The position numbers were made by a program, and so were the translations under genes. A stretch of DNA of 64,000 nt from NCBI GenBank assembly GCA_001782035.1, contig MFNL01000002.1, positions 124,865-188,864 on the forward strand, read 5' to 3'. Below the pieces are notes generated by a model. It searched no databases. It had not been told where the DNA came from and worked only from the letters and a program-made list of their open reading frames with translations. The DNA comes from Candidatus Levybacteria bacterium RIFCSPHIGHO2_01_FULL_37_17. GTDB lineage: Bacteria; Patescibacteriota; Microgenomatia; Levybacterales; UBA12049. Below, piece by piece: positions 24,064-32,843 of the stretch (its first letter is position 1; every line of letters starts with the position of its first letter).

Positions 24064-24708
24064 ATGCAGAGTTTTTTAATAATTTCTAAAGATAAACAAA
24101 AAGCAAAGGACTACGTACTAGATTTTGCAAAAGAGAAAAAAATTTCAAAATTTGATATCTATACGCTGCAAACAGAAAAAGCTCTAGGAATTGAAGATGT
24201 AAAAAACCTTTTCTCCAAAATATTTTTAAAACCAATAAAAGGCGATAAGAAAATAGTTGTGGTAGAGGCCTTTTTGGGGGCAACAGTCGAGGCTCAAAAC
24301 GCATTTTTAAAAGTTTTAGAAGAGCCGCCATTTTCTACTTTTATTTTTTTACTAGCTTCTGAGAATTATTTTCTCTCCACAATAAATTCAAGGACGAAAC
24401 TGGTGCAATTAGATAGAGAAATAAAATTTACAGAGGAAGATGAAAAATTATGTTCTGAAATTGTTGAAAACTTAAAAAGCGAAACTATTGGATATAGATT
24501 AAAGCTGGCACAGGATATGGCAGGCGATAAAAACGAAGCAATACTCTTTTTAGAGAAATTTATAGTTTTTGCAAGAAACAACATGGTTAAAGAGCTATCA
24601 AGCGAATATAAAAAGAAAATTGACGTTTTAAATAAATACTACAAAAAAATAAAGGAATCTAATGTAAACTTGCGCCTTGCTTTGGAAAATTTATTCCTAG
24701 AACTTTAG
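24064..24708 (+). CDS. holB: DNA polymerase III delta-prime subunit-like (short)
   Basis: AQNAFLKVLEEPP, the clamp-loader sensor-1/NALLKTLEEPP-type motif. Confidence 0.6.
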   Translation: MQSFLIISKDKQKAKDYVLDFAKEKKISKFDIYTLQTEKALGIEDVKNLFSKIFLKPIKGDKKIVVVEAFLGATVEAQNAFLKVLEEPPFSTFIFLLASENYFLSTINSRTKLVQLDREIKFTEEDEKLCSEIVENLKSETIGYRLKLAQDMAGDKNEAILFLEKFIVFARNNMVKELSSEYKKKIDVLNKYYKKIKESNVNLRLALENLFLEL

Positions 24709-24755
24709 TTTTCCACAATTTGATATAATACCAACTTGTGGAAAGAGACAGACTG

Positions 24756-24771
24756 TTTGGTTTAAGAGCTG
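24756..24771 (+). repeat. degenerate sixth copy of island motif (TTTGGTTTAAGAGCTG)
   Basis: Matches the 3' half of copy 5 (TTTGGTTTTGAGCTG) plus a following AT-rich stretch. Lacks the CGAAAA 5' part. Confidence 0.4.
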
Positions 24772-24971
24772 ATAATAAAATTGAATGGCATTTAAACCCC
24801 CAAAAAACTACACGAAAGCAAATACAGATTTGTTGCAAACGATAACCCAATACTGGACAAAATTTACAGATTAAAAATGGAAGATGCTCTTTGGGGTCCG
24901 TTAAGTCGTATGCCGCTACCAAGGCCAGAGCGTCTTTTTAGTATTCGTCACGCCTCGCAGAAAAGGTAGGC

Positions 24972-25757
24972 TTATTGAAGCCGTTTTTTATAGTCATCCT
25001 GCTCAAATCTTCCGAAAGGCTGACTCGTTAAATGAGCAAGCATTTCTTCTTCTCTTATGTCTTTAGCTTGCAAAAGTCCGATATTATGCCTTGCTATATC
25101 GTGAATTCTGTCCGGGCTCTCCCCCTCCAGACAATAGTAATCCGTGCCTAAATAAACAGACATAAATAGTGCTTCAAATGCATCTGCTTTCATTTCTTCA
25201 AAGACTGGATCTTTTAGATGCTCGCCCAACGTGTGTCCATGCTCATGAGCGAGAACAGATATTACATCTTCTTCTGTTGTATTTTCTTCTTGTCCTCTAA
25301 AACCTAACCTTATTCTAAACATGCCCCCAGAACGTCTCTTACAATCTCCAATTATAGTTCTGAAAATGTCTTTGCCGTATCTTGCCATCATAAATTCTCT
25401 TTCCAAAGGATTTTTTGGCATCAACTCACGCTGATCAACAAATAGTACCTGTCTACCTGCAGTTGGAAGATATACACCGCTTTCATGGCTTATTAGGGAG
25501 AGAACGTCTCTGTAATCTGCCATCACTCTTCTTCTGCTCCAACCTAACTCTTCTACATGATCATCTTCTGCTTCTTGAAGCCCAGTAATATCTGTTATTC
25601 TTTCAAAGACTACAACAGGCAAATGTTCTAAATTTATGGGATCAGGGTTGTCAACGGGAATTAGCTCTGGGGATTTAACAGGGGAGGGTGCACTAAACTG
25701 TACCTCTGGAAAAAAGACTTGGGTTGGTCTTAACATTTCAGTTCTCTCAACTCTCAC
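24972..25757 (-). CDS. ImmA/IrrE-family-like zinc metallopeptidase (HExxH)
   Basis: LAHEHGHTLGEHL matches the AHELGHxxxH zinc-binding motif of COG2856-type peptidases. GC elevated relative to flanks. Confidence 0.5.
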   Translation of the reverse strand: MRVERTEMLRPTQVFFPEVQFSAPSPVKSPELIPVDNPDPINLEHLPVVVFERITDITGLQEAEDDHVEELGWSRRRVMADYRDVLSLISHESGVYLPTAGRQVLFVDQRELMPKNPLEREFMMARYGKDIFRTIIGDCKRRSGGMFRIRLGFRGQEENTTEEDVISVLAHEHGHTLGEHLKDPVFEEMKADAFEALFMSVYLGTDYYCLEGESPDRIHDIARHNIGLLQAKDIREEEMLAHLTSQPFGRFEQDDYKKRLQ

Positions 25758-25815
25758 AATGGGGGATTATAGCATAAATTGCAGCTTTGAAAACATATGA
25801 TATAATCGCATCAAT

Positions 25816-26121
25816 ATGGCAGCAGGAGTAGAAACAACAATTGCAAAACCACCAAAGTTGTCCCACTCACAGAAAATTTTGGAAGCAATCGATTTACTGG
25901 CTGCGGATGGGATAAGAGGCGCAACCCCAGATCAAATAATAGAAAGGGCAAAAAGGAAGCATCCTTCAAGACTCAATATCATTTTTCAACCATGGTGGGA
26001 TAATGCGTTTAGCAAATTGGAGGCTTCGGGAGAAATTCACGGCATACGAAATCCTGTATATACCCAAGACTCACCGTCCAATAGGCTTTATCAAAGACCC
26101 CTAAAAGAAAAAACTCGATAA
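25816..26121 (+). CDS. small putative winged-helix DNA-binding protein
   Basis: SHSQKILEAIDLLAADGIRGATPDQIIERAKRKHP resembles linker-histone/winged-helix globular domains. Divergent from the peptidase gene. Confidence 0.3.
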   Translation: MAAGVETTIAKPPKLSHSQKILEAIDLLAADGIRGATPDQIIERAKRKHPSRLNIIFQPWWDNAFSKLEASGEIHGIRNPVYTQDSPSNRLYQRPLKEKTR

Positions 26122-26137
26122 ATTTGGTTTGAAGAAG

Positions 26138-26614
26138 TTAATCCCAGCTTAGAGGATGTTCTGAATCTAATTGTCCAGCGTGGCGAATAAGGGAATTTAA
26201 TTCCGATCCAGCAATCCTATGATGACGAGAATAAATATGTCCTAGTTTATCCCAAAACTCTTTTTTTTCTGCGTCCGTTTCAACCTGGCCACTATGTTTA
26301 CCCCTAAAAGTTCCGAAATACCAGTCTACTCTTGTTCTGTTGTTAGCACGTCTGTGATCTTCGATTATTATAATATTTAGTGCGCCTTCTTTTGAATATC
26401 TATCAATTTGCGTCATATAAACAGTCGCCGGCATATCCGATCTTCCAGTGTCTAAGCCTAAAGAAGGCTCCCAATAATTGAATAGCGCGTCTTGAATTGT
26501 TTCCCAAGGAACAAAAGTGGCAAATGAAGATGGGCCCTTTCGGTTAAATTCTCGGCTTCTGGGCAGGTGAGCTGGTTTGTTTTCAACTCCCATTAGCGGA
26601 GTATAAAACCACAA
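26138..26614 (-). CDS. hypothetical protein
   Basis: 158-aa ORF in the GC-elevated island. Consensus minus-strand promoter (TTGACA-17-TATACT) 6 nt upstream of the ATG. Confidence 0.5.
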   Translation of the reverse strand: MWFYTPLMGVENKPAHLPRSREFNRKGPSSFATFVPWETIQDALFNYWEPSLGLDTGRSDMPATVYMTQIDRYSKEGALNIIIIEDHRRANNRTRVDWYFGTFRGKHSGQVETDAEKKEFWDKLGHIYSRHHRIAGSELNSLIRHAGQLDSEHPLSWD

Positions 26615-26630
26615 ACCAAAATTGTCAACC

Positions 26631-26646
26631 GAAAATTTGGTTTTGA
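26631..26646 (+). repeat. island motif copy 1 (GAAAATTTGGTTTTGA)
   Basis: Exact 16-mer between back-to-back -35 boxes (minus-strand TTGACA at 26623-26628, plus-strand TTGACT at 26649-26654). Confidence 0.8.
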
Positions 26647-26648
26647 AC

Positions 26649-26676
26649 TTGACTTTGCGAGCAGAAAAAGTATAAT
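26649..26676 (+). promoter_or_regulatory. sigma70-type promoter TTGACT-16-TATAAT
   Basis: Consensus hexamers with 16-nt spacer, read directly. Confidence 0.6.
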
Positions 26677-26774
26677 AAAATCATGAAAATAGAATTTTTT
26701 AAATTAGTAAGAAGAAACACCTCCCTCGTAGGCGGTGTGCTTTCTTTTGCGTAAAAAATAAATAAATTAGGAGC

Positions 26775-26799
26775 AACCGCCGAAGAGGCGGTTTTTTTG
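26775..26799 (+). terminator. intrinsic terminator (ACCGCC-GAAGA-GGCGGT + T7)
   Basis: GC-rich 6-bp stem followed by TTTTTTT, about 100 nt downstream of the promoter at 26649. Confidence 0.6.
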
Positions 26800-26829
26800 T
26801 GGCAAAATGCCGAAAGGAGGTGAGAAATT

Positions 26830-27156
26830 ATGACAGAAAAATTAAAACCAGCATATGAACAATTTCATATGTTAGAGGAACCTATAAAAGGAGTCCTAGT
26901 TTATCATGGAGAAAACTCTATTCCAATTGTTGGTACACTTATGGGATATGAGCATCACGAATATGCACGTTTTGCATTCAATACCCCAATCCTTGAGGAC
27001 ACTATTCACAAGGTCTCAGAGAGCACAAGGATGGGAGAAATTTACGTGCCATATTCGGTATATGCAAGAGCTCTTCGAGAGCTAGAGAGATATGGGCTCG
27101 GACAAAATCTTCAAAAAGAAGTAGGCGGAGCAAAAAATAGCAACCCTACTTCTTAA
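26830..27156 (+). CDS. hypothetical protein
   Basis: 108-aa ORF with strong RBS AAAGGAGGTGAG. Followed by a hairpin terminator. Confidence 0.55.
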   Translation: MTEKLKPAYEQFHMLEEPIKGVLVYHGENSIPIVGTLMGYEHHEYARFAFNTPILEDTIHKVSESTRMGEIYVPYSVYARALRELERYGLGQNLQKEVGGAKNSNPTS

Positions 27157-27160
27157 AACT

Positions 27161-27183
27161 AAAACCCCCGTTGCGGGGGTTTT
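27161..27183 (+). terminator. bidirectional intrinsic terminator AAAACCCCCG-TTG-CGGGGGTTTT
   Basis: Perfect 6-bp GC stem flanked by an A-run and a T-run. Confidence 0.7.
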
Positions 27184-27210
27184 AGTTTGGATAAGCCTCG
27201 AAATAACCCC

Positions 27211-27226
27211 GAAAATTTGGTTTTAG
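27211..27226 (+). repeat. island motif copy 2 (GAAAATTTGGTTTTAG)
   Basis: 14/16 identity. Preceded by AAATAACCCC. Confidence 0.8.
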
Positions 27227-27234
27227 GATACATG

Positions 27235-27262
27235 TTGACATTTATTTAGTTAGTTATATAAT
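27235..27262 (+). promoter_or_regulatory. consensus promoter TTGACA-16-TATAAT, 6 nt upstream of ATG (leaderless arrangement)
   Basis: Read directly. ATG at 27269. Confidence 0.65.
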
Positions 27263-27268
27263 CCCATT

Positions 27269-27502
27269 ATGGCGCAACAAGGAGAAAGAGGAATCTTCCC
27301 ACCAATAGATGAGCTCATGAAACAGGTTAGGGCAGAAGAAGCGAGAGAGCCGTATCGCGGACATGATATGCCACAAAGAGAAATAACATGTACTCCAGGA
27401 CAATCAGCTGAAATGACTCCGGGATTACTTCGCCTTGCCAAAAAGTGGGGGGATCAACTTAGACAGCCTAAACCTCGAAAAAAAACACAACCAAGAAGAT
27501 AA
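27269..27502 (+). CDS. hypothetical small protein
   Basis: 77-aa ORF, about 46% GC, with a leaderless-type promoter. Confidence 0.45.
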   Translation: MAQQGERGIFPPIDELMKQVRAEEAREPYRGHDMPQREITCTPGQSAEMTPGLLRLAKKWGDQLRQPKPRKKTQPRR

Positions 27503-27506
27503 CCCA

Positions 27507-27522
27507 GAAAATTTGGTTTTGA
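27507..27522 (+). repeat. island motif copy 3
   Basis: Exact 16-mer preceded by AGATAACCCA. Lies 5 nt after the upstream stop codon. Confidence 0.8.
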
Positions 27523-27554
27523 AAATATATTTTATTTAAGCTACATTTATATTA

Positions 27555-28874
27555 ATGACTGTAGACAGAAAAGAGGGTCCTGCAGGTACCACCACGCTCA
27601 AACAACTTGAATCTGATAGGCGCAAAATAGATATTAAAGTTAATTCAGGAAGAATACGCACTCTGGAAGGAAAAATTTTGCGTGGAACTGCCCGTCCTGA
27701 TCAAATATTTGAATGGTATTTAGTACAGGATCCTTTTGTAGAACAGCCTGCATTGAAAGTTTTGAACGGGGATATATCTTCGGTGCTTAATTTTCCTATC
27801 GAGATGACTCAGAAATCTTACGCCTATGGAAAAGCAGCAGATATTTTATTAGCAGCTTGCGGCGTAGAACCGGAAACAATGGATGACTTCAAACAAAAAC
27901 TACTTACAGAGCAACCAATAGATTTTTATAGAAACCTTTTTTTAGCAGCAGAATTAATGTGGGAATCCAGCGGAAATCTAAGATTGGCCGAACCACTACT
28001 TCAACAAATGGGTATAAATACTATATTTAATAATGATCCCGTATTTAACAACACAAGAGGGCGGCAAGAGCTTTTAGGACAGACGTCTCATGTAATATTT
28101 GATGCAATAGGAAATTCGATATTGCAAAATGATCAAATAAAAGATCCTGAAACCCTAATGATTGGGCTGGACGCCCACTGGAAACTTCTAGCGGACTTAA
28201 TGCAAGGACGAGAAGGCGATGAAGTAAGCATACAAAAAATATTAAAAAAGAAATTACTTCAAAGTATGATATCTGATCTTAGAACTGTGTTTTTAACAGA
28301 TAGAAGTCCACTAAAAAACAAAGATGTTCCAAAATCTTTATTAAAAGGCAAGCTTATGGAATACGTATGGCTTTTAGATTCTCATGTTTTTTTAGCTGCT
28401 GAAGAAGATTTTATAACCATGGTTTTTCCTACTAATTATTATGTTGATATGCCACACTTGGGCCATCCCGTTCTAAAAAGAGGAGCTGATATCCAAATAA
28501 GAAATATTGACAGAAGTATAGATTATTACGTACAACTTAAGTCTTCGCACGCTCAAAGTGGCAGGCCATATCATCCTGCAATTACTGTTGTATGTGAAGA
28601 CAACTTCCAAGATATAAATCCTGGAAGATTATTCAAAAAACTTGAAGCTTACCAAAAATTTGTAGACTCAGATTTTTCAACAGAAGATGGAAACGCAGCT
28701 AGAAAATACATTCTTCCATCGGTAGCTGAAACTCTAAACTTAAGGGAGACAAACAAGCATATAGTGGCGGAACTTGCGAAAATTCATGGAATTCCAAGAA
28801 ATGAACAATTATCAGAATTTACTTATAGACGTTTTATGGATTTTGTTAGTCCGCGAAGAAGGACATTAAAATAA
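27555..28874 (+). CDS. hypothetical protein (439 aa)
   Basis: Long ORF without recognisable family motifs. The segment GADIQIRNIDRSIDYYVQLK is weakly reminiscent of a PD-(D/E)xK nuclease core. Confidence 0.55.
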   Translation: MTVDRKEGPAGTTTLKQLESDRRKIDIKVNSGRIRTLEGKILRGTARPDQIFEWYLVQDPFVEQPALKVLNGDISSVLNFPIEMTQKSYAYGKAADILLAACGVEPETMDDFKQKLLTEQPIDFYRNLFLAAELMWESSGNLRLAEPLLQQMGINTIFNNDPVFNNTRGRQELLGQTSHVIFDAIGNSILQNDQIKDPETLMIGLDAHWKLLADLMQGREGDEVSIQKILKKKLLQSMISDLRTVFLTDRSPLKNKDVPKSLLKGKLMEYVWLLDSHVFLAAEEDFITMVFPTNYYVDMPHLGHPVLKRGADIQIRNIDRSIDYYVQLKSSHAQSGRPYHPAITVVCEDNFQDINPGRLFKKLEAYQKFVDSDFSTEDGNAARKYILPSVAETLNLRETNKHIVAELAKIHGIPRNEQLSEFTYRRFMDFVSPRRRTLK

Positions 28875-28878
28875 CCGC

Positions 28879-28894
28879 GAAAATTTGGTTTTGA
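28879..28894 (+). repeat. island motif copy 4
   Basis: Exact 16-mer preceded by AAATAACCGC. Lies 4 nt after the stop of the 439-aa ORF, in a convergent gap. Confidence 0.8.
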
Positions 28895-28899
28895 AATTC

Positions 28900-29088
28900 T
28901 TATGCAGAAGTTCTGTGCGGTCGTAATCCTGCTTTTCTTTGCCTGTGATATTCGCTGGCTGTGATTCCTTCTCCTCGATCAACAGCGTCAATTTGTCCTT
29001 GAACCATTTTGCCAAATGCTTCTTTTCCACCGGCAGATCGATATAAAGCTGAAAGAACCCTTCCCTGTACGCTTCTTTCTACTGGCAT
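28900..29088 (-). CDS. hypothetical small protein (62 aa, Gly/Arg/Lys-rich)
   Basis: GC-rich (about 52%) ORF with its own minus-strand TTGACT-16-TATTAT promoter abutting motif copy 5. Confidence 0.35.
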   Translation of the reverse strand: MPVERSVQGRVLSALYRSAGGKEAFGKMVQGQIDAVDRGEGITASEYHRQRKAGLRPHRTSA

Positions 29089-29127
29089 AATAAGTCAATA
29101 ATACTACTTAAATGCTAAAAGTCAAGC

Positions 29128-29143
29128 GAAAATTTGGTTTTGA
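29128..29143 (+). repeat. island motif copy 5
   Basis: Exact 16-mer. TTGGTT within it serves as a -35, with 17-nt spacer to TATAAT (29157-29162), then 6 nt to the ATG at 29169. Confidence 0.8.
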
Positions 29144-29168
29144 GCTGCAATAGTAATATAATTCCTTC

Positions 29169-29693
29169 ATGTGGAATTTAATTCAAAATGAATGGGAAAA
29201 AATTCCTCAAAGTTTAAGAACGTTTATAGAAATAGGCGTTGTGCTAGTCTTTAACTCCTGGCTACTTGATCATTGGAACTTAAGCGGAACTTTACCCTAC
29301 AAATATCTTGGTAAATTTGATTTGAGAGAAATCAGTTATAACCTTGGAATGACTGCTATCTATGTATCGCTAGGGATAATTGTATTAAGGCTGATTATTA
29401 GTTTTCCCCAAGTAGTAAGTAATTATAAAAATAAATATCCAACAAAAAATATTGGTAAAACTTTTGAGCTAGTGTGGTTTAATGGTAAATTAATGCTTTT
29501 TGAACATAAAAAGAAATTATATTATCATGTCTATCCTTGGGAAACTGCTCAAGACCTAGACTTTATTTCATATGGAACTCACGTTGAAGATCATTTTCCT
29601 AATCCTAATAACGTAAAGGTAAAACTAGATAGCGGTAAGATGCTCGACACCTCAGAATACAAAAATGGGGGTAGTATAAACACTACTGTATAA
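29169..29693 (+). CDS. hypothetical membrane protein (2 TM)
   Basis: Two hydrophobic helices. AT-rich native composition. Confidence 0.5.
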   Translation: MWNLIQNEWEKIPQSLRTFIEIGVVLVFNSWLLDHWNLSGTLPYKYLGKFDLREISYNLGMTAIYVSLGIIVLRLIISFPQVVSNYKNKYPTKNIGKTFELVWFNGKLMLFEHKKKLYYHVYPWETAQDLDFISYGTHVEDHFPNPNNVKVKLDSGKMLDTSEYKNGGSINTTV

Positions 29694-29737
29694 TCCTATC
29701 AAGTTGATTTAAAAATAGGAAGAGATATAATTTCTCC

Positions 29738-30637
29738 ATGGGAAAAGATGTATTTAAAGAAATAGATGATATCATCGCGCAAATTATTAAAGTTTTAGAA
29801 ACTGAATATGACAATCTTATAAAAAGCGGTTATGGGCTTCAATTAAAATCAGATATTGCACGAGGATTAATAAAAGTCAACGGTATATACAGACCTTTCT
29901 CTGAAATGGAACATAAAATTTTATTTGATGGTTACGAAACAACTTTTATAGAAATGTTCCTAGAATTACATAAAAAAATGTATGAAAGATGGTACGAACC
30001 GTTGACTCAATTCGCCATAAGAACAATACATGAAATGGGTTTTAAGCGTACTCAAATATTATTTAATAAAAAACTAAACCCCCAAAAAATAAAAAAGTTT
30101 AAACTATTACTCATGTTAGCTGATTACGCAATGATCTCAGACATTCCTCTTCATAAAAATCACTATATAAAACTTTTGAAAGAATACAAAAATTTACTAA
30201 CCAAGAAAGAATTAGATTTTTATAAAATTCTAATTCCTGAAATAGAAAAAGCTGATCCGTTAGCTAGATACGAAAAAATAAGAACTGCTCGACAAAAAAT
30301 TAATACATTACAAGAAACTTTATTTTTAGAAACCGAAATATTGTCAATTTTCAGAAAAATAAACGTGATGTCTGTTAATTCTAGTTTTTCACATCTATTG
30401 CATGGAAATATTCTTTTGTTAAAAGACGTCTTACAGCTAAAGAGAGGTGACTCACCTCGGCTCAGGGTATACTGGATACTATTATTAACAGGGGTAAATG
30501 TAATTACTTATGTTGGAAATTTTTTAAATGAGTCAAATATCAATAAGGATGTTGAAAAAATTACAAAACAATTTATAGGTAAATCAGAATATATTAAGAA
30601 ATATTGGGAAGACCTAACCTCTAGAAATCCTTCATAA
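29738..30637 (+). CDS. hypothetical protein
   Basis: 299-aa ORF with no recognisable motifs. Confidence 0.5.
   Translation: MGKDVFKEIDDIIAQIIKVLETEYDNLIKSGYGLQLKSDIARGLIKVNGIYRPFSEMEHKILFDGYETTFIEMFLELHKKMYERWYEPLTQFAIRTIHEMGFKRTQILFNKKLNPQKIKKFKLLLMLADYAMISDIPLHKNHYIKLLKEYKNLLTKKELDFYKILIPEIEKADPLARYEKIRTARQKINTLQETLFLETEILSIFRKINVMSVNSSFSHLLHGNILLLKDVLQLKRGDSPRLRVYWILLLTGVNVITYVGNFLNESNINKDVEKITKQFIGKSEYIKKYWEDLTSRNPS

Positions 30638-30710: not shown

Positions 30711-32843
<2,133 letters not shown>

Follow-up and report, generated by a model that had tools for sequence, protein, structure and literature searches.

In the 64-kb stretch of DNA from Candidatus Levybacteria bacterium RIFCSPHIGHO2_01_FULL_37_17 analysed here (contig MFNL01000002.1; hereafter, the window), copies of a 16-nt motif separate small genes in the interval between holB and gyrB. 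This interval was interpreted, with moderate confidence, as an integron-like cassette array in which the junction motif also provides the upstream half of a leaderless promoter. The underlying observations were the motif itself, its restriction to one locus, its constant orientation, its occurrence at three types of gene junction, the shuffled gene content of related loci and two strain junctions located at motif edges. In the explanation that we favour, the array would consist of single small genes, occasionally short operons, in either orientation, separated by a nearly invariant, asymmetric motif with two roles. The motif would mark the junction where units are exchanged, and for forward units it would supply the upstream half of a sigma-70-type leaderless promoter, namely an A-tract and TTGGTT at the -35 position. 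Because the motif would carry this promoter half, a unit placed behind it would be expressed; reverse units would carry their own TTGACA promoters. The array would be fixed at one chromosomal locus and specific to a Levybacteria-like lineage of the Candidate Phyla Radiation (CPR), and the gluzincin-like protein of 261 amino acids (aa) and the 101- and 439-aa proteins encoded in the window would be cargo, not machinery.

The junction motif and its locus

The open reading frames (ORFs) of the interval (261, 101, 158/151, 108, 77, 439 and 62 aa) were verified, and the same set was obtained with independent gene callers on public copies of the contig. About 20 public contigs were 100% identical to the window, including contig MFOU01000002.1 of GCA_001782495.1. 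The features are as follows (window coordinates; promoters as predicted).

24064–24708, + strand: holB (DNA polymerase III delta'), conserved left anchor of the array; PF13177 on identical public copies
24709–24971, no strand: gap of 263 nt after holB, no called gene; hairpin at 24710–24744 and terminator-like hairpin at 24969–24982
24972–25757, - strand: gene of the 261-aa HExxH protein (family F10), gluzincin-type metallopeptidase-like; putative cargo gene
25816–26121, + strand: gene of the 101-aa protein, divergent from the 261-aa gene; no Pfam or PDB match
26138–26593, - strand: 151-aa gene, as called on public copies (158-aa ORF, 26138–26614, if an upstream TTG start is used)
26631–26646, + strand: junction motif copy 1, exact; divergent junction
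26649–27195, + strand: unit of the 108-aa gene, with TTGACT-16-TATAAT promoter, 23-codon ORF, terminator, Shine-Dalgarno sequence, 108-aa gene and terminator hairpin
27211–27226, + strand: junction motif copy 2, two mismatches; followed after 8 nt by the TTGACA -35 box of the 77-aa gene
27269–27502, + strand: 77-aa gene, leaderless TATAAT-N6-ATG; TAA stop 4 nt ahead of the next motif copy
27507–27522, + strand: junction motif copy 3, exact; overlaps the -35 position of the promoter of the 439-aa gene (TTGAAA-17-TACATT)
27555–28874, + strand: gene of the 439-aa protein, with N-terminal helical bundle and C-terminal alpha/beta region
28879–28894, + strand: junction motif copy 4, exact; in the 25-nt gap between the convergent 439- and 62-aa genes, no promoter behind it
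28900–29088, - strand: 62-aa gene, called on public copies; own promoter TTGACT-16-TATTAT at 29125–29098
29128–29143, + strand: junction motif copy 5, exact; divergent junction, 13 nt upstream of TATAAT (29157–29162)
29169–30637, + strand: 174- and 299-aa genes, gyrB-proximal end of the variable interval; no motif between the two
30717–32843, + strand: gyrB, conserved right anchor of the array; Pfam match on public copies

The motif, GAAAATTTGGTTTTGA, occurred exactly at 26631, 27507, 28879 and 29128 and with two mismatches at 27211, always on the + strand and between genes, and the link that the earlier note had drawn between this segment and a repeated motif was thereby borne out. A profile built from other genomes, with the window excluded, recovered exactly these five copies in the 64 kb (E 1.7e-6 to 1e-4), so that the motif is confined to 26.6–29.15 kb of the window. 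The extended motif reads roughly (TAA)CCCC-motif-AAACC, with the conserved part comprising the 16-mer and about 3 nt on each side. The position profile of 68 copies showed neither a dyad nor inverted arms, and a single-strand fold that is stable or conserved was not found (five window copies, both strands: -1.3 to -5.9 kcal/mol, z -0.8 to +1.0). The motif was therefore rejected as a structured RNA or terminator, given that Rfam returned only a tRNA, that no fold was found and that copies also occupy divergent junctions.

Related loci and contigs, labelled L001 and so on (the window locus being W), carried the same motif at the same place. L001, whose pilB and holB are 79% and 65% identical to those of the window, contained 11 copies, all on one strand, against 0.8 expected. 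When genome and metagenome collections were scanned for the motif followed by N9–15 and TATAAT, arrays of 3–8 same-strand copies were recovered in metagenome-assembled genomes of Levybacteria and Patescibacteria, as well as in numerous metagenome contigs; MFOU01, MFNK01, MFPL01 and JACRFQ01 are among the Levybacteria genomes that bear the motif. The arrays of at least 12 related contigs lay at the pilB-holB-[array]-gyrB locus with shuffled gene content, and the conserved layout was pilC/T/B (reverse), holB, an array of 3.4 to >9.6 kb, and gyrB. Arrays retaining a flanking core gene adjoined holB and/or gyrB (tblastn): holB adjoined the array in W, L001, L007, L008, L009, L020, L026, L030 and L035, and gyrB flanked it in L006/L030, L008, L010, L012, L016, L020, L022, L024, L025, L026 and L035. 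With loci oriented by the motif, holB and gyrB were co-directional with it in every locus containing them. Contigs of 335, 311, 143 and 97 kb each had one matching stretch, indicating that the motif is locus-specific and not dispersed over the genome, and viral contigs gave isolated single matches only. A role as DNA-uptake sequence was rejected since the motif stood at one locus only, both on these 97–335-kb contigs and in the 64-kb window.

Of 70 motif copies (19 loci), 45 preceded a -10 box and a start codon with an ORF of 35 codons or more. The gap from motif to -10 box was mostly 12–14 nt, TATAAT was followed after 6–8 nt by ATG, and the TTGGTT of the motif, preceded by an A-tract, lay 17 nt from TATAAT. 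This geometry, motif-N12–14-TATAAT-N6–8-ATG, was found in about 30 of the 45 promoter-associated copies; a second promoter class had a canonical TTGACA/T box 2–10 nt downstream of the motif. The consensus geometry of the 45 copies corresponds to that predicted for a sigma-70-type leaderless promoter, and we infer from it that the motif acts as a promoter element. Other copies stood apart from promoters: about 10 lay directly at the 3' end of a reverse gene and were followed by no promoter, for example at 28879 in the window and at 1348 in L001, where the copy occupies the 21-nt gap between convergent genes. The two reverse genes of the motif-bearing part of the window had their own TTGACA/T promoters (that of the 151-aa gene being TTGACA-17-TATACT at 26628–26600), each adjoining the following motif copy at its left edge. 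Thus, the motif was found at tandem, divergent and convergent junctions, and its orientation follows the chromosome and not the gene.

Leaderless geometry (TATAAT 6–8 nt before the start codon, no Shine-Dalgarno sequence) was observed throughout the window, e.g., at starts 5298(-), 16875(-), 23089(-), 23131, 32887, 33328, 39120, 47792(-) and 59851, and leaderless mRNAs appear to be a common expression mode in this organism. Outside the array, leaderless TATAAT promoters of the window had no motif, and the idea that the motif is the general promoter consensus of the organism was rejected on this ground.

Proposed exchange of units and competing explanations

The content of the segment between holB and gyrB varied between related genomes, which agrees with its earlier description as an accessory segment. 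Families F4, F5 (CutA1), F6, F8, F10, F19, F20, F21 and F24 occurred in varying order and with varying neighbours among the arrays, and recurring cargo included a 171-aa family, CutA1, HIT, an 85-aa membrane protein, the HExxH family, a Zn-ribbon protein, a cytidine deaminase and a TrpR-like protein. CutA1, for example, stood at the end of an operon with overlapping genes in L001 and L009 and formed a stand-alone, motif-headed unit in L024 and L025; directly after its stop codon, L025 had an extra motif-headed reverse unit. In L010 (JACRFQ010000027.1), four of seven copies read GAAAATTTGGATTTGA and a fifth had the same T-to-A change at motif position 11, and this shared variant points to homogenisation of the motif within a genome (concerted evolution).

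Four short variant contigs from the same aquifer (L071, L050, L072 and L055) each had one part that was 99.9–100% identical to the window, beyond which the sequence diverged. L071 was 100% identical to 25493–26647 and continued with a different tail of 159 nt, which reads aaacccatagtgc-TATAAT-N7-ATG and opens an ORF beginning MAIEKEDW. L050 matched 26335–28901 (100% through 28898) and ended in a different 94-nt tail, in which TTGACT-N17-TATAAT-N10-ATG leads into an ORF beginning MHERIRER; its promoter segment was 82% identical to that of a unit in L009. Both junctions were located at the 3' edge of motif copies (26631 and 28879). By our own arithmetic, a random breakpoint would fall within 5 nt of a motif 3' edge with p ~0.012, and two of four breakpoints would do so with P ~1e-3. 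From the sequence comparisons we infer that recombination occurs in the motif. It could proceed by short-homology recombination after DNA uptake, through a dedicated recombinase, or through a RAYT-like Y1 transposase present in two arrays. The latter gene, RAYT-like or IS200-like, formed a reverse unit in L008 (3723–4310, record orientation) and L025 (957–1493); it matched PF01797 (E 2e-14) and scored 50 bits against the NCBIfam model REP_Tyr_transpos, below the cutoff of 80. GC-rich palindromes, GACCCCTGGGGTTGA, flanked it and recurred in L010 and L012. RAYT genes were found in only 2 of about 14 arrays, and none in the 64-kb window.

Several findings weigh against the cassette-array interpretation. 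The other two variant contigs diverged away from the motif, in the 3'-terminal parts of genes, namely of the 108-aa gene in L072 (at 27121) and of the 174-aa gene in L055 (at 29666). At 94 and 159 nt the variant tails are short, and the assemblies that contain them were made from short reads. The array is identical in about 20 public contigs of the strain, indicating that turnover is slow. Furthermore, as the motif is the sole sequence common to different units, alignments between strains would end there even if it were a mere promoter element that the crossover used as short homology; breakpoints at its edge therefore mark a crossover or homology boundary, and not the existence of a dedicated enzyme. 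In L035 (GCA_964521295.1, a 936-kb contig; gyrB 85% identical), neither the motif nor another junction repeat was present. In its segment 4466–11366 the gene order is likewise pilCTB-holB-[11 genes]-gyrB, and two paralogues of the 261-aa protein (257 and 247 aa) and one 439-aa homologue are encoded there. A variable gene set can thus exist without the motif, and this locus is a natural motif-minus control. No recombinase was encoded in any holB–gyrB locus examined. The sole tyrosine recombinase of the 64 kb (43845–44762, - strand) is Xer-type and lies 15 kb from the array; it reached 123.8 bits against a cutoff of 265 for the integron integrase model TIGR02249, passed the XerA cutoff and scored near XerC/XerD. 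Finally, with neither a dyad nor a stable or conserved single-strand fold, the motif is unlike attC, dif and HUH sites.

The main rival, which we regard as possible although rather unlikely, is that the motif is purely regulatory, a site over or next to the -35 box for a lineage-specific activator, repressor or sigma-like factor that would control a group of small accessory genes together, and that genes turn over via incidental short homology. The dominance of one fixed spacing from motif to TATAAT and start codon (about 30 of the 45 promoter-associated copies) favours such a box, as does the position of the site, which is asymmetric and about 20 nt long and either covers the -35 box or precedes a canonical TTGACA by 2–10 nt. 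In this position it resembles MarA-type marboxes or T4 MotA boxes. The motif also has no dyad or hairpin of the kind that recombinases usually need, and L035 retains genes without it. However, some exact copies are followed by no promoter, being placed between convergent genes or at a reverse gene's 3' end. Reverse genes have TTGACA promoters of their own, and the motif is never inverted to suit them; nor was a regulator conserved in or beside the arrays found. The motif is moreover conserved at 16/16 positions across genomes whose holB and gyrB are 43–74% and 70–85% identical to those of the window, which is tighter than expected for an operator. The genome-specific variant common to five of seven copies in L010, and the two strain junctions exactly at motif edges, likewise speak against a purely regulatory site.

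An origin of the motif as an att repeat, fossil or active, from the 3' end of holB was also considered; the array would then have arisen through repeated site-specific insertion, with a direct repeat of the end of holB left behind each time, like tandem islands at tRNA genes. The conserved C-terminus of holB, ..LENL(F/V/L)L, is encoded by GAAAAYYT..., and the motif in frame reads E-N-L-V-L; the exact motif forms the holB 3' end in L008, with the end of holB in L009 differing at 3 of 16 positions, and all motif copies are co-oriented with holB. In the window, however, the last holB codons (..LENLFLEL and stop), GAAAATTTATTCCTAG (24684–24699 region), have the first 8 nt in common with the motif but depart from it at 6 of 16 positions, and no significant copy lies within 1.9 kb downstream of holB. 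Since, in addition, the resemblance is partly forced by the conserved E-N-L codons, no integrase stands beside holB in any locus and units of 0.25–1.4 kb are far below the size of integrative elements, this origin is improbable. Least credible of all is a model along the lines of the earlier note, a horizontally acquired regulatory or defence switch made of an ImmA/IrrE-type protease and a winged-helix partner, with the motif as its operator. The HExxH motif and a downstream Glu are invariant in the protease family, the window gene is divergent beside a small basic protein, and motif copies do stand at promoters. Nevertheless, the model is contradicted on both family and co-occurrence: the pairing is not conserved, L035 has two protease homologues and no motif, most motif arrays lack both genes, no PADLOC match was obtained, and there is no compositional sign of recent transfer.

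Beyond the cassette-array interpretation that we prefer, a broader proposal is put forward only tentatively: these loci may represent a previously unrecognised CPR cassette platform, in which the 16-nt motif would be a site of capture, swap and loss as well as a portable promoter half. Such a platform would operate without an integron integrase or attC, by a new recombinase (possibly a domesticated Y1/RAYT-type enzyme) or by short-homology recombination after natural uptake. Neither the motif nor cassette arrays in these phyla were described in the literature searched. Little is understood of how CPR/Patescibacteria, whose genomes are tiny and which rely on other cells, take up and try out new genes. 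If single ORFan genes are indeed exchanged at a 16-mer that switches them on, the fixed hotspot would be a compact gene-sampling device and a functional analogue of the integron, differently built. The motif offers a sequence handle for finding arrays in metagenomes and cataloguing the accessory gene pool, and the contrast between motif-plus and motif-minus genomes could be used to seek the missing enzyme. Two misreadings of this locus, as a GC island and as an ImmA/IrrE switch, are also corrected.

Some further features of the compared loci deserve mention. L055 (ERZ27254845 k141_3011742) was 99.9% identical to the window over 2.7 kb and had a premature TGA in the 77-aa gene (~27390; 36 codons left) and two base changes in the motif copy equivalent to 27211–27226, which suggests that the 77-aa unit is decaying in some cells. 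Within the L010 array, two segments of about 85 nt, containing the motif and a GC-rich palindrome, were duplicated. A gene encoding a TrpR-like 141-aa protein had near-perfect palindromes (TACTAATATACATGTATATTAGTA) on both sides in L020 (256–737) and L026 (5446–5928, both motif-oriented). Its DNA was 90% identical between the two loci, against only 75% for holB and 81% for gyrB, and this likeness suggests either recent exchange or very strong constraint. Differences between L030 and L031 were dismissed as assembly artefacts, because the deletions also hit gyrB. The L008 record (CAYIOB010000021.1) is titled 'uncultured Gammaproteobacteria' yet its holB-array-gyrB locus is of the Levybacteria type, with 82% identity to the window in gyrB, and the record is probably mis-binned or mislabelled. 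In the window, the Xer-type gene adjoins that of a 739-aa Fic-domain protein (41623–43842, + strand); neither was evidently linked to the array.

Genes and composition of the interval

The uncharacterised ORFs reported earlier for this segment exist; none of the proteins encoded between holB and gyrB reached the thresholds of Pfam, NCBIfam, PHROGs or PADLOC. The HExxH motif of the 261-aa product is likewise present, LAHEHGHTLGEHL. A word-indexed search with this protein returned only itself and one 56%-identical homologue, whereas an exhaustive HMMER search yielded a family of 67 cluster representatives, 65 of them below 1e-10 and nearly all single-domain proteins of 220–265 aa. In the family alignment, H171, E172, G174, H175, E188 and H219 were invariant, with the core HE[YH]GHTLG...EE[LM]KA..F...H. 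The assignment to ImmA/IrrE (COG2856) was ruled out by profile and fold searches. An hmmscan of 53 family members gave no match to Peptidase_M78 (PF06114), and NCBIfam gave none either; their only Pfam matches were weak, HExxH-local ones to M48, M10 and reprolysin, and the family profile matched in the PDB only the HExxH of matrix metalloproteinases (E > 0.1). The AlphaFold model was confident (pLDDT, the predicted local distance difference test, 88.8; pTM, the predicted template modelling score, 0.82), and a fold search returned generic gluzincins, IrrE/ImmA-type structures not being the closest fold. In the model, an HExxH helix is combined with a downstream Glu ligand on the next helix and a zincin fold, as in gluzincins. 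Because the M78 profile did not match and the predicted fold is that of gluzincins, the ImmA/IrrE identity was rejected, and as modelled the 261-aa protein is a small, distant thermolysin-type zincin. Like ImmA/IrrE proteins acting with cI/Xre-type repressors, it is small and cytoplasmic and has an HExxH zinc site and a Glu further downstream. It is unlike them in that its family has no M78 match and no conserved helix-turn-helix partner, is single-domain with about 250 aa and has a different conserved core.

The adjacent 101-aa protein, which the earlier note took for a winged-helix partner, gave no match to Pfam, helix-turn-helix profiles or PDB sequences, and a single homologue was detected, in L001 (53% identity). 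The 58-nt gap between the two genes contains leaderless TATAAT promoters for both. They are adjacent in the window only; in L001 they stand three genes apart, and the 101-aa gene was undetected in L010 and L035, both of which have 261-aa homologues (two in L035). The supposed logic of a protease with a DNA-binding partner is therefore not supported by a conserved pairing. Nor did a defence role find support, with no PADLOC match for 10 proteins and no PHROGs match; a defence or phage origin was rejected on the absence of PADLOC, PHROGs and NCBIfam matches and on the isolated single motif matches in viral contigs. In the 439-aa protein, E269, D298, D312, Q327 and K329 of the C-terminal alpha/beta region were invariant, and its L035 homologue within the holB–gyrB interval was 37% identical. 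A PD-(D/E)xK nuclease, of which the earlier note had seen a faint sign in this protein, would have an alpha-beta-beta-beta-alpha-beta core and D...(D/E/Q)xK catalytic residues.

The unit of the 108-aa gene was the sole array gene in the window with a long leader (26649–26829, no Rfam match). It comprises a 23-codon ORF at 26683–26754 (MKIEFFKLVRRNTSLVGGVLSFA), an intrinsic terminator at 26775–26793 with a T-run, AGGAGG, the 108-aa gene at 26830–27156 and a terminator hairpin at 27149–27195. Judged by its sequence, the leader may be an attenuator with a leader peptide or may encode a small peptide of toxin-like kind. At the gyrB-proximal end, the ATG of the 174-aa gene follows TATAAT (29157–29162) after 6 nt. 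In the 263-nt gap behind holB, neither a significant RNA fold (z = 0.54) nor an Rfam match, an ORF of note or a DnaA-box cluster was found. The gap contains a TATAAT preceded by TTTGA and one DnaA-box-like TTTTCCACA inside the hairpin at 24710–24744, and its terminator at 24969–24982 is bidirectional. A replication origin at the locus was rejected, with 7 DnaA boxes found against 8.9 expected and no dnaA in the window; GC skew in the window tracks gene strand.

The segment had been described as a foreign island of 42–52% GC against about 33% in its flanks, a contrast that disappeared on measurement. Segment 24710–29160 has 38.5% GC against 37.1% for the whole window; among windows of the same size the standard deviation was 1.4%, and 21% were at least as GC-rich as the segment, whose best 200-nt stretch reached 48%. 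Its tetranucleotide distance from the window mean was unremarkable (z = 0.35), and GC content at third codon positions (GC3) of the island genes (0.24–0.32) overlapped that of core genes such as pilB, gyrB, gyrA and recG (0.26–0.34). A GC or k-mer island was rejected on these grounds. The apparent contrast arises because the neighbours are AT-rich, holB having 29.9% GC and the 174- and 299-aa genes 28–32%.

Comparison with known systems

Among known systems, integron cassette arrays, including sedentary chromosomal integrons and CALINs (attC clusters without an integrase), have much in common with the array. Both have a fixed chromosomal platform with mostly single-ORF units between co-oriented repeats, ORFan-rich cargo and occasional reverse units with their own promoters, and in both the repeats are more uniform within than between genomes and strain content differs at repeat boundaries (here in L050 and L071). 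Unlike in integrons, no IntI gene was found at the array, the only candidate in the window being the Xer-type recombinase below the TIGR02249 cutoff. The repeat here is 16–22 nt long, conserved in sequence and without a fold, whereas attC sites measure 57–141 nt and are conserved in structure; and most units here have their own promoter, partly from the repeat, whereas integrons depend on one Pc promoter.

The pdif modules of Acinetobacter plasmids are similarly small gene modules bounded by short conserved sites with no adjacent dedicated recombinase; housekeeping Xer is the presumed enzyme there, and an Xer-type gene exists in this genome. Their sites are 28-nt dyads (11-6-11) in alternating orientation. 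The site here is asymmetric and always direct, in a chromosomal array at one locus, and among 68 copies no 28-nt site with two 11-nt inverted arms around a 6-nt centre was found. In minimal mobile elements and replacement-type flexible islands (Neisseria, marine bacteria), different gene sets also lie between conserved flanks and are presumably exchanged by DNA uptake and recombination, and a type IV pilus cluster (pilB/T/C) adjoins the array here. Those elements, however, recombine in long flanking genes without an internal repeat, whereas here the 16-mer bounds the units and two strain junctions fall there.

Repetitive extragenic palindromes (REPs) and their RAYT enzymes resemble the array in their short conserved extragenic repeats, and a RAYT-like gene flanked by GACCCCTGGGGTTGA forms a unit in L008 and L025, the only two loci with this combination of gene and palindromes. 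The 16-mer, in contrast, is asymmetric, confined to a single locus rather than dispersed over the genome, and not accompanied by a RAYT gene in the window. Activator boxes such as the phage T4 MotA box and the MarA/SoxS marbox are comparable as asymmetric boxes combined with a normal -10 box, lying over or just upstream of -35; they differ in that copies here also occur without a promoter, keep an orientation tied to the chromosome and have no cognate factor identified. The array thus lacks the features that define integrons (IntI, attC), REP/RAYT systems and dif modules, yet it behaves like a cassette array.

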